DNA of 5,216 bases, from positions 1-5,216 of IMG/VR virus record IMGVR_UViG_2695420427_000008; one strand, given 5' to 3'. Of the stretch, positions 259-5,216 are shown in pieces (position 1 is the stretch's first letter; the number at the start of each line of letters is the position of its first letter). Below the pieces are notes generated by a model. That model was not told where the DNA came from and made no database searches. It saw only the letters and a program-made list of their open reading frames with translations. Source of the stretch: a virus (Duplodnaviria > Heunggongvirae > Uroviricota > Caudoviricetes). Made by a program: the position numbers and the translations under genes.

Positions 259-722
259 GCAGAGTCACCGCGATTATCTCCGCTCTGGTTATCTGCATCA
301 TCGTCCGCCTGTCATGGGCTGTTAATCATTACCGTGATAACGCCATTACCTACAAAGAGCAGCGCGACAAAAACGCAAGAGAACTGAAGCTGGCGAACGC
401 AACCATTACTGACATGCAGCAGCGCCAGCGTGATGCTGATGCACTCGATGCTAAATACACGAAGGAGTTAGCTGATGCGAAAGCTGAAAATGATGCTCTT
501 CGGCGCAAGCTTGATAATGGTGGCAGGGTGCTCGTCAAAGGAAAATGCCCTGTGCCATCCTCAGCCGAAACCTCCAGCGCCTCCGGCATGGGCAATGATG
601 CCACCGTCGAACTCTCTCCAGTTGCTGGACGAAACGTTCTCAGTATCAGATCTGGAATCATCAGCGACCAAACATCACTGAGAACGCTTCAGGAATACAT
701 CAGGACGCAATGCCTTCGATGA
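255..722 (+). CDS. Rz: Rz i-spanin (inner-membrane spanin subunit)
   Basis: 155-aa ORF starting [17 protein letters not shown], an N-terminal transmembrane segment followed by a charged coiled-coil region and a C-terminal Cys; the first ~85 residues closely resemble lambda Rz. The ORF track starts at GTG 243, but ATG 255 overlaps the endolysin stop and matches the lambda Rz N-terminus. Rz1 is nested inside in the +1 frame. Confidence 0.9.
475..681 (+). CDS. Rz1: Rz1 o-spanin (outer-membrane lipoprotein), embedded in +1 frame within Rz
   Basis: 68-aa ORF fully inside Rz. Shine-Dalgarno GAAGGAG at 461-467 lies 7 nt upstream of ATG 475. Signal peptide [19 protein letters not shown] carries a lipobox (VAGC), followed by the proline-rich stretch [11 protein letters not shown] typical of Rz1. 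Confidence 0.85.
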
Positions 723-923: not shown

Positions 924-1232
924 GCCATTACAAAAGCCACTCCCTACAGAGTGGCTTTGATAATGGCTTATACCCTACACGGGATAACTTAACTGATATC
1001 CCTTTTAACGGATAAAGGTATTCAAGCCTGACACATCATGCGCTGTATCGTCGCCGTATTCCCGTATTAACAGAGACCGTAGCCCGACGGGGAACTCCTT
1101 CTGCGAGAGTGTGCGGGAATAATCAAAAACGATGCACACCGGGTTTTTACCGCGTTTATGGTTCGCGGGTTTGTCCCTCATGCTCGCCAGTCCTGTGCGA
1201 GGGTGGAAGAAACAGGACGTGTATTCAGGTCT

Positions 1233-1266
1233 GTGCGACCGTGGTCGCACGCATTTCTTTTATTGC
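1233..1266. promoter_or_regulatory. Perfect palindrome GTGCGACC-GT-GGTCGCAC followed by a T-rich tract; candidate operator or attenuator/terminator hairpin
   Basis: Positions 1233-1240 are the exact reverse complement of 1243-1250, followed by GCATTTCTTTTATTGC (1251-1266). It lies 13-30 nt upstream of the RBS/ATG of the small ORF at 1279. Confidence 0.4.
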
Positions 1267-1278
1267 TTTGAGGTAGAT

Positions 1279-1488
1279 ATGTCAGTTGCTGTTTTCGAGG
1301 CACTCAATGCACGTATTAACCAACTTGAAAGTAAGGTGAAGGAATACGAGCAGCGACAGGCTGAGGCAGATGAGAAGACTCAGAACGAACTTTTCCTGGA
1401 GTTTCTTGCCATCGTTCACGAACTGATGCCGTTAGTTAATCAGGCGCTGATGACAGGACTGAAGGATGGAGATTTACACAGTAGGTAA
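1279..1488 (+). CDS. Hypothetical small protein (69 aa), predicted largely helical/coiled-coil; accessory (moron-like) gene between lysis cassette and cos
   Basis: ATG 1279 is preceded by GAGG at 1270-1273 (5-nt spacing); stop TAA at 1486-1488. Product MSVAVFEALNARINQLESKVKEYEQRQAEADEKTQNELFLEFLAIVHELMPLVNQALMTGLKDGDLHSR. The ORF track's longer version from ATG 1132 has no RBS and reads across the palindrome, so the shorter start is preferred. No homolog recognised with confidence. Confidence 0.55.
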   Translation: MSVAVFEALNARINQLESKVKEYEQRQAEADEKTQNELFLEFLAIVHELMPLVNQALMTGLKDGDLHSR

Positions 1489-1537
1489 ACCTGATCTTCT
1501 GTCTTACGGGTCCTTTCCGGTGATCCGGAGCGTTACG

Positions 1538-1549
1538 GGGCGGAAGGCG
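1538..1549. other. cosN: cosN core (position of the 12-nt cohesive end); sequence here is GGGCGGAAGGCG
   Basis: Located by alignment to the lambda junction ...GTTACG | GGGCGGCGACCT | CGCGGGTTTTCGC. The window reads ...GTTACG GGGCGGAAGGCG CGCGGGTTTTCGC: same length, first 6 nt identical, last 6 nt differ (AAGGCG vs CGACCT as I recall lambda). Confidence 0.6.
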
Positions 1550-1589
1550 CGCGGGTTTTCGCTATTTATGAAAATTTTCCGGTTTAAGG

Positions 1590-1607
1590 CGTTTCCGTTC
1601 TTCTTCG
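1590..1607 (+). repeat. cosB R-element-like terminase small-subunit binding repeat (R3-like)
   Basis: CGTTTCCGTTCTTCTTCG matches the R-element motif family (CGTTTCC...) of lambda cosB and is related to the repeat at 1690-1701. Confidence 0.55.
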
Positions 1608-1646
1608 CCGTAACTTAATGTTTTTATTTAAAACACCCCCTGAAAA

Positions 1647-1701
1647 GAAAGGAAACGACAGATGCTGAAAACGGGCTTTTTGGCCTCTGTCGTTTCCTTT
1701 C
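1647..1701. repeat. 15-bp perfect inverted repeat (GAAAGGAAACGACAG / CTGTCGTTTCCTTTC) separated by 25 bp: cosB R-elements in opposite orientation
   Basis: 1647-1661 is the exact reverse complement of 1687-1701. The spacer contains GGGCTTTTTGGCC. The same architecture is present in lambda cosB, where gpNu1 binds. Confidence 0.7.
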
Positions 1702-1726
1702 TCTGTTTTTGTCCGTGGAATGAACA

Positions 1727-2246: not shown

Positions 2247-2272
<26 letters not shown>
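1727..2272 (+). CDS. nu1: Terminase small subunit gpNu1
   Basis: 181-aa ORF MEVNKKQLADIFGASIRTIQNWQEQGMPVLRGGGKGNEVLYDSAAVIKWYAER..., near-identical to lambda gpNu1 as I recall it (N-terminal winged HTH that binds cosB). Same length as lambda Nu1 (546 nt). Confidence 0.97.

Positions 2273-5216
<2,944 letters not shown>

Follow-up and report, generated by a model that had tools for sequence, protein, structure and literature searches.

In phage lambda, dimers of the small terminase subunit (TerS) bind cosB at its R boxes, across a bend induced by IHF, and so anchor the large subunit (TerL), with R3 as the TerS binding site that positions TerL (PMC9026076, PMC4669245). TerL introduces two nicks 12 bp apart in cosN, and cosQ together with cosN serves termination at the next cos (PMC9026076, PMC4669245), cosQ being the packaging-termination element (PMC4669245). 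Mutations at cosN bp 7-12 have a minimal phenotype: G2C lowers the yield about 10-fold, whereas the symmetric C11G costs nothing, and this left/right asymmetry depends on proximity to cosB (PMC4669245). The tolerance of positions 7-12 goes back to Xu & Feiss 1991 and Hang et al. 2001, both as they are cited in PMC4669245, and to Feiss et al. 2015 (PMC4669245). Terminase is described as measuring its point of attack from the R site (Higgins & Becker 1994, as cited in PMC4669245).

Natural cosN sequences also vary. Relative to lambda, bp 9 and 12 are changed in N15 and phiD326, and bp 8, 9 and 11 in Gifsy-1; lambda TerL gives equal yields and burst with the lambda and N15 alleles, and a 2-bp mismatch between lambda and N15 ends causes about a 4-fold loss in viable yield (PMC4669245). 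For mEp213/LLS the cosN GGGCGGCGCGCT, with the right half CGCGCT, was inferred as a variant in E. coli lambdoid phages (PMC12315714). The canonical 12-mer is thus not defining for the wider lambda-like family, since the right halves of N15, phiD326, Gifsy-1 and mEp213 all differ from it. Specificity pairs of cosB and TerS exist among lambda, 21 and N15 (PMC4669245), and the cos of PICI satellites (cos-rpp) keeps the cosQ and cosN of the helper, with its own cosB-like site adjoining a TerS homologue (PMC9026076).

The cos region and terminase genes of the window

The window analysed here, a stretch of 5,216 nt, covers the lysis-to-head junction of a lambda-like prophage. To place its cos site, we aligned it with lambda(DE3), in whose record the cos 12-mer is annotated, and with five other lambda-like phages; the alignment was free of gaps across cos, and window and lambda were compared base by base from -45 to +192 relative to cosN. 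The cohesive-end 12-mer of the window is GGGCGGAAGGCG (1538-1549), and its ungapped lambda counterpart is GGGCGGCGACCT, from which it differs at five of twelve positions. The segment 1532-1555 reads GTTACG, GGGCGGAAGGCG, CGCGGG. The 12-mer occurs once within the window, and shuffled sequence gave no match in 200 shuffles. A misaligned register or a wrong lambda sequence in the sequence-only reading was ruled out by the unambiguous, ungapped alignment to the lambda(DE3) cos.

The 16-bp cosN, consisting of CG, GGGCGGAAGGCG and CG, lies at 1536-1551 (no strand assigned, placed base for base on the annotated lambda 12-mer). Its left half GGGCGG is the same as in lambda, as are the CG dinucleotides at 1536-1537 and 1550-1551 that bracket the 12-mer, so that positions -2 to 6 and 13 to 14 are identical. 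All changes fall in the right half (1544-1549, also without strand), which reads AAGGCG in place of the CGACCT of lambda. The same block is found in genomes of E. coli, in contigs of IMG/VR and in two phages of GenBank. Positions 7, 8, 9, 10 and 12 are changed, that is five of the six right-half bases, and C11, the symmetry partner of G2, is retained. The number of symmetric base pairs in the 16-bp site falls from 10 in lambda to 8, and the change at position 7 breaks the central symmetric pair G6:C7. The GC content is 10/12 in both 12-mers and the nearest-neighbour dG37 values of the two alleles are -17.8 against -18.2 kcal/mol; the annealing energy of the cohesive ends is preserved.

The surrounding elements follow lambda closely. 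The cosQ sequence GGGTCCT, whose 7-bp extent we take to be 1508-1514 (plus strand), is identical to that of lambda, has the same offset of -30 to -24 from cosN, and was invariant across 74 distinct haplotypes. In cosB, the 12-bp cores of R3 (CGTTTCCGTTCT, 1590-1601, plus strand), of the inverted box R2 (AGAAAGGAAACG, 1646-1657, minus strand) and of R1 (CGTTTCCTTTCT, 1691-1702, plus strand) all match lambda exactly, at cos positions 53, 109 and 154, and the remainder of cosB carries 7 substitutions. The I1 region, a predicted IHF site in the interval between R3 and R2, was located approximately by its position relative to lambda (presumably 1610-1636, no strand assigned); it is conserved except for 2 substitutions, at cos positions 73 and 97. 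The whole interval from cosQ up to the first codon of Nu1 is free of indels relative to lambda, with all spacings unchanged. Upstream of about -34, the sequence is unrelated to lambda.

On the far side of cosB follow, all on the plus strand, the genes for Nu1, the terminase small subunit (181 aa, 1727-2272; Pfam Phage_Nu1, PF07471, E=3.9e-101), for A, the large subunit (641 aa, 2247-4172; GpA_ATPase and GpA_nuclease, PF05876 and PF20454), and for W, the head-tail joining protein (4169-4375; Pfam gpW, E=5.8e-38). The 5' part of the portal gene B begins with the ATG at 4372 and stays open until the window ends at 5216, and its overlap with W is arranged as in PhiR46_1 and lambda. On the lysis side, likewise on the plus strand, are the 3' part of an endolysin gene (1-258, with frame 1 open from base 1; Pfam Phage_lysozyme E=3.5e-15, PHROG endolysin) and an Rz-like spanin (243-722; Pfam Phage_lysis E=1.2e-30, phrog_13 Rz-like spanin). 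Embedded in Rz is an Rz1-like lipoprotein ORF (475-681, plus strand), whose signal ...IMVAGCSS may be read as a lipobox. Two small ORFs without assigned function lie between Rz/Rz1 and cos; the 118-aa ORF in this interval (1132-1488, plus strand), with no Pfam family and weak, function-less PHROG matches, is context and stands outside cos proper. Among 5,426 complete E. coli genomes, the closest to the window matched it with 97.2% identity over 94% of its length.

Nu1 and both gpA domains gave Pfam matches over their full length, and an intact terminase thus adjoins the variant site. Compared with lambda(DE3), Nu1 is 98.9% identical (A75T, L132I), gpA 99.5% (T263S, I459V, D620E) and gpW 100%, and because of these identities the enzyme is essentially the terminase of lambda. 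The sequence-only reading of this locus had recognised correctly both the cohesive end of lambda, which is the one annotated in lambda(DE3), and the departure from it at this position, within flanks and beside terminase genes that are lambda-like. Its statement that the last six nucleotides all differ holds for positions 7, 8, 9, 10 and 12 and fails for C11.

We also looked for terminase residues that follow the cosN type, in 110 Nu1 and 64 gpA sequences, all of full length, whose loci had a known cosN type. No residue of either protein separated the loci with the variant 12-mer (hereafter allele B) from canonical loci in these 110 Nu1 and 64 gpA sequences, the largest frequency difference being 0.34. 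Two phages with canonical cos, Stx1_9793 and phiSTEC1575-Stx2k, have a Nu1 that is 100% identical to that of the window, and the gpA of the window is 99.7% identical to the gpA of locus L075, which adjoins a canonical cosN. One and the same gpA was found with both alleles (L138 with allele B, L075 with the canonical one), and four Nu1 sequences were common to the two groups. Among the allele-B loci that reach far enough, gpA was full length in 24 of 27. By this comparison, allele B needs no special terminase, and enzyme and site are not co-adapted.

Recurrence, diversity and carriers of the cosN alleles

The 12-mer GGGCGGAAGGCG, which we named allele B, is not a private mutation. Of 5,426 complete E. 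coli genomes, 155 contained it when searched with short queries designed so that every seed spans the variable block; these genomes have 166 places with the allele, 16 of them on plasmid records. The canonical allele was located at 7,416 places in 4,100 of the same genomes, with 19 places on plasmid records. Allele B was further found in 77 stretches of IMG/VR, two of which are an exact inverted duplicate on one contig, in the GenBank phages PhiR46_1 and YDC107_1, and in one Escherichia sp. species-representative reference genome. When positions 7-12 were left free in the IMG/VR scan, at least 120 loci comprised 116 canonical sites, 3 of allele B and 1 single-base variant. The sequence-only reading asked whether the 12-mer recurs as a conserved variant; conserved and recurrent in a functional phage family it is, but as a minority of about 2% of the lambda-type cos sites in complete E. 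coli genomes, not as the common form. Because the 12-mer is present in hundreds of independent assemblies, a sequencing or assembly artefact was ruled out. Matches to the cosQ..cosN pattern outside enteric bacteria were either the exact lambda sequence, probably contamination, or GC-rich with flanks that are not phage-like, and they were not counted as cos sites. The exact string GGGCGGAAGGCG was absent from the phage literature searched, the sole match being an unrelated plant paper; outside this search lay Vahanian et al. 2017 (Virology 509:140, cited in PMC9026076), reportedly a survey of natural cosN variation.

Counted over 245 bp, the flanks of allele B fall into at least 34 different haplotypes, and the types of cosQ-cosN spacer are likewise many. 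Three classes of cosB accompany it: that of lambda, one of satellite type, and a third, which canonical cosN sites have as well. The linkage of allele B to flanking SNPs is weak (r2 at most 0.38), and its single-step derivatives are rare singletons. The many haplotypes, the three cosB classes and the weak linkage carry the signature of an old allele, which would have been maintained while its surroundings recombined, rather than of recent damage.

A third allele, C, was also found. Its sequence is GGGCGTCAGGCG; it has AGGCG in common with allele B and is changed also at position 6, within the supposedly conserved left half. We found it at 63 places in 61 E. coli genomes and at 15 IMG/VR loci, in contexts of both the lambda type and the satellite type.

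Two contigs of one metagenome, L012 with the canonical allele and L171 with allele B, are 99.7% identical over 7 kb. Their five cosN differences stand isolated in the alignment, the next ones being about 180 bp upstream and at +734, and for this reason the cosN allele must have been exchanged as a tight block. It is plausible that a chromosome cut at two different cos alleles would contain a heteroduplex of exactly 12 bp, which would segregate at replication; the route through such chromosomes was demonstrated by Feiss et al. for lambda and N15 (PMC4669245). Ordinary short-patch conversion is a possible alternative route. Besides L012, L171 and L168 we found no clean swap pairs, the remaining near neighbours being mosaic.

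In the unbiased sample, taken with positions 7-12 free but still limited by the search pattern, nucleotide diversity (pi) at these positions was 0.08-0.10, nearly all of it from allele B, and in the cosQ-cosN spacer it was 0.25-0.39. The lower value hints, with the same restriction on the samples, that the right half of cosN is not neutral in nature, despite healthy laboratory mutants.

The carriers of allele B include an isolated phage. PhiR46_1 (PV340565) is a complete phage genome record with E. coli ECOR13 as host, and its accession series, as far as the citing text of PMC13190303 describes it (with reference to Brenes & Laub 2025), is that of the PhiR panel of temperate lambda relatives from the Laub laboratory, for which plaque assays were used. 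Its plaque-forming status thus rests indirectly on the GenBank host field and on this citing paper. Since its annotation comprises telL/telR sites and ParA/ParB, besides a primase-type replication protein, a repressor and lysis genes, and since its head and tail module is lambda-like and complete, PhiR46_1 is a linear phage-plasmid of the N15 kind whose packaging is of the lambda type. The linear plasmid pCAVP367-48, also a carrier of allele B, encodes a protelomerase and has the same layout. Carriers of this kind account for the excess of allele B among plasmid records, which is 42-fold (Fisher p=4e-18).

Other carriers resemble satellites. Loci with AlpA, cos and a Nu1-like gene, and without TerL, have allele B in L068, L130 and L158, and allele C in L220 and others. 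The gene content of such loci consists of a primase, SSB, E-like and D-like capsid genes, AlpA, cos, the Nu1-like gene and an Abi gene. The satellite-type cosB, taken from L068, had no megablast match among GenBank phages. If helper terminases package these elements, this would lend further indirect support to the cutting of alleles B and C.

Probable function of allele B and alternative readings

Taken together, these observations make it very probable that the cos of the window is a working lambda-type site that carries a natural cosN allele. The anatomy of the site, its recurrence, the intact terminase genes, the lack of allele-specific residues and the isolated phage and phage-plasmid carriers are established by the comparisons above; the actual nick positions and the packaging efficiency at allele B we infer by analogy with lambda. 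Nu1 dimers on R3, R2 and R1, with IHF bending I1, would anchor gpA as they do in lambda. By homology, the top-strand nick made by gpA would fall 5' of G1 (window 1537/1538), and its bottom-strand nick would separate cosN positions 12 and 13 (window 1549/1550). The products would be 12-nt 5' overhangs, 5'-GGGCGGAAGGCG at the left end and 5'-CGCCTTCCGCCC at the right end, which would anneal to each other following injection. Since the two ends of a chromosome come from copies of a single cosN, every cosN sequence is compatible with itself.

The five changes would be tolerated because all of them lie in the right half, proximal to cosB, where the bottom-strand nick is probably set mainly by the distance measured from R3 and not by the local sequence. 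Tolerance is also to be expected because the elements read by the enzyme (the CG dinucleotides, GGGCGG, C11, cosQ and the R boxes) are unchanged. The published tests cover neither five simultaneous right-half changes nor position 7, and for allele B the tolerance is argued from them. That a nearly unchanged lambda terminase is found beside a right half altered at five positions is in keeping with the published model of an R3-measured bottom-strand nick. Beyond the 5.2-kb window, the remainder of the prophage could be defective for other reasons.

A more far-reaching reading, to which we assign a low probability, holds that allele B is functional but not neutral, with the right half setting the compatibility of cohesive ends. 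A chromosome with mixed alleles would have five mismatches in 12 and would be poorly viable, and this would limit cos-to-cos packaging and hybrids between co-resident elements. The occurrence of discrete alleles with almost no intermediates among the at least 120 IMG/VR loci, their exchange as tight blocks, a spacer more polymorphic than the right half, and the cost in viable yield that already attends the 2-bp lambda/N15 mismatch (PMC4669245) are all in line with it. However, low diversity can be explained as well by recent common ancestry or by homogenisation through recombination, the sampling patterns fixed the flanks, and in laboratory infections with a single genotype right-half changes had no fitness effect. 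In its widest form, which we regard as equally doubtful, the E. coli right half would exist as three discrete, near-invariant alleles, A (GGGCGGCGACCT), B and C, which move as cassettes of ~12 bp and act as compatibility groups. These cassettes would travel between lambda-like prophages, N15-like phage-plasmids and PICI-like satellites, and their movement may run through chromosomes cut at two different cos alleles. If true, compatibility groups would shape which co-resident elements exchange or co-package DNA. The population pattern itself, in which alleles are discrete, are swapped as tight blocks and are shared with satellites, is the sole part of this work that goes beyond what has been published, and any biological meaning of it is speculative.

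We consider it highly improbable that cos is dead, the five changes being damage that blocks the element's own terminase and leaves it cryptic and unpackageable. The change is indeed large (five of six bases, with two symmetric base pairs lost) and many lambda-like prophages of E. coli are defective, but decay predicts scattered and differing mutations, while the same 12-mer was found at all the E. coli places and IMG/VR stretches counted above, in many haplotypes and with three cosB classes, and its single-step derivatives are rare singletons. No virion ends of an allele-B phage were found, both GenBank phage records and all IMG/VR contigs holding the site internally and none starting or ending there, which could also be expected of a dead site. 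Against this, an isolated temperate phage and intact phage-plasmids carry allele B, intact terminase genes adjoin it in the window and in 24 of the 27 other loci, and right-half changes are tolerated in published genetics (PMC4669245). The window shows neither of the marks of a prophage with inactivated cos, which would be a mutation peculiar to it and decayed packaging genes.

The least credible reading is that allele B requires a TerL with altered nicking and so marks a new terminase/cosN pair, which the cosB/TerS pairs of lambda, 21 and N15 (PMC4669245) make conceivable, but which can hardly be upheld against the small residue frequency differences and the identical gpA and Nu1 proteins found with both alleles, the three gpA substitutions between window and lambda being conservative and at least I459V being common in both groups.

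A working site with a natural allele is therefore the reading we retain. Of the two outcomes foreseen by the sequence-only reading, packaging with a non-canonical overhang is indirectly but strongly supported by the recurrence, the intact terminases, PhiR46_1 and the N15-like phage-plasmids; a mutated cosN that the element's own terminase could not cut finds no support, the recurrence and the intact terminase genes speaking against it. The expectation of new insight into nicking specificity from either outcome was overstated, because both the tolerance of positions 7-12 and natural variation there had already been published. For annotation, it follows that a 12-mer deviating from GGGCGGCGACCT is no ground for calling a lambda-type cos defective. 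Tools that match the canonical 12-mer miss about 3% of E. coli lambda-type cos sites (alleles B and C together), and the missed sites include a whole group of N15-like phage-plasmids.

Comparison with known cos sites

In comparison with the cos of lambda, the window has the same architecture, the same cosQ-to-Nu1 spacing, and the same cosQ, flanking CG dinucleotides, cosN left half and R3, R2 and R1; it differs at cosN positions 7, 8, 9, 10 and 12, with 8 rather than 10 symmetric base pairs. The PICI satellites of E. coli are a different case: the window has instead a phage-type cos with a full lambda cosB and both terminase genes, and it is not a satellite.

The closest parallels are the natural variants N15, phiD326 and Gifsy-1, which, like allele B, are changed only in the right half and conserve the left half and the flanking CG dinucleotides. 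They alter two or three positions, whereas allele B alters five, including position 7. The variant of mEp213/LLS differs from lambda at two positions only (9 and 10), and its head genes and TerL are distant from those of lambda. In our searches, the N15-type right half CGTCCG was found in Kluyvera, Buttiauxella and Dryocola, CAGCGT (the Gifsy-1 pattern) in Citrobacter, and CAGACT in Kosakonia. Among the right halves found (CGACCT, CGTCCG, CAGCGT, CAGACT, CGCGCT and AAGGCG), that of allele B is the most divergent.

With its changes confined to bp 7-12, its left half, CG dinucleotides and cosQ unchanged, and PhiR46_1 and phage-plasmids among its carriers, allele B has the features of a natural right-half variant. 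It is a further instance of natural right-half cosN variation, the underlying principle of which is published; rather than being fixed in a diverged phage, it coexists in E. coli with the canonical allele, beside the same terminase genes.

Variation and exchange of the cosN right half

We compared cos positions -45 to +72 of IMG/VR loci L007-L126, a sample bounded by the search pattern. Among the matches listed, the loci with the canonical lambda allele (right half CGACCT) were almost invariant at cosN positions 7-12, with one variant in 117 loci, and the cosQ-cosN spacer was highly polymorphic in the same loci. On these sequences, the right half of cosN looks constrained or homogenised in nature, although it is tolerant in the laboratory.

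Two contigs from a single IMG/VR metagenome (3300045988), which carry loci L012 and L171, were 99.7% identical over cosN +/- 2.5 kb. At cosN itself an entire block of five bases differed between them, and the next-closest differences were found about 180 bp upstream of cosN and at +734. Judging from this alignment, the cohesive-end allele was swapped in the manner of a cassette within a single background, a phage-plasmid of the PhiR46_1 type.

In complete E. coli genomes, the allele of the window (right half AAGGCG, hereafter allele B) was 42-fold enriched on plasmid records, where 16 of its 166 places were located, as compared to 19 of the 7,416 canonical places. The carriers of allele B that we examined, PhiR46_1 (PV340565, L219) and NZ_CP145143.1 (L240), were N15-like linear phage-plasmids. 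In addition to tel sites or a protelomerase, they have ParAB and a lambda-like module that is complete for head and tail. We also noticed that loci L142 and L145, located on the same 56-kb contig (IMGVR_UViG_3300045988_113976), were exact reverse complements across 9,149 bp, so that cos lies within an inverted duplication on this contig. The duplication could have arisen from an N15-like phage-plasmid whose hairpin telomere was read through, or it could be an artefact of assembly.

The lambda cos (cosQ, cosN and the start of cosB) also turned up in assemblies of unrelated non-enteric organisms. The match to lambda was exact in Raphidiopsis brookii D9 (L200), Aeromicrobium sp. (L202) and 'plasmid unnamed3' of Alicyclobacillus fastidiosus (L206), and in Archangium violaceum (L203) the cosQ-cosN spacer differed from that of lambda. 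Contamination with lambda or a cosmid vector is the most likely source of these occurrences.

Surroundings and possible descent of allele B

In the window, homology to lambda begins only at about -34 from cosN. The interval between Rz and cos contains two uncharacterised plus-strand ORFs, one of 50 aa (710-862) matching phrog_11822 over its full length and one of 118 aa (1132-1488) with no Pfam family.

In 27 IMG/VR loci (L241-L267) allele B was accompanied by a different left arm, terminating in CACG instead of TACG. The arm ...GGGTCCTTCCGGTGGGGTGGCCTGCCACG was common to 17 of the 27, and the cosB of these 17 belonged to a third class (GGGGAAAATCATGTCGG...). Of the 64 IMG/VR loci in that class, 18 had allele B, and none combined this arm with the canonical cosN.

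Rare derivatives, one or two steps from the main alleles, were each seen only once or twice in IMG/VR: AAGCGT, AAGGCT, AGACCT, TGACCT, CGACCG, GGGCGACGACCT and GGGCGTCAGACG (loci L174, L178, L161, L150/L159, L076, L221/L230 and L233). Since AAGCGT is one substitution apart from the Gifsy-1-like CAGCGT, there is a hint that allele B may descend from the latter lineage and not from the 12-mer of lambda.

A third cosN allele and satellite-like elements

A third allele, GGGCGTCAGGCG (allele C), has AGGCG in common with allele B and is also altered at position 6, within the left half described as conserved. It was located at L220:4006-4017, on the chromosome of E. coli WP8-S17-ESBL-12, and in IMG/VR loci L222-L229, L231, L232 and L234-L238. 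Complete E. coli genomes had 63 places with allele C in 61 genomes, none of them on a plasmid, and none was found in GenBank phages. Both lambda-type cosB and satellite-type cos accompany this allele.

A lambda-type cosQ-cosN bearing allele B or C was also present in a satellite-like element (L068:2060-6254 and L220:1-6144; also L130 and L158). The element encodes a primase, SSB, an E-like major capsid protein, a D-like decoration protein, an AlpA-like regulator and an Abi-family gene, and has cos with a Nu1-like TerS homologue without the large terminase; in L220 it adjoins a lambda-like major capsid gene lacking its N-terminus. Its layout is like that of the cos-rpp PICI, from which it differs in having capsid genes of its own.
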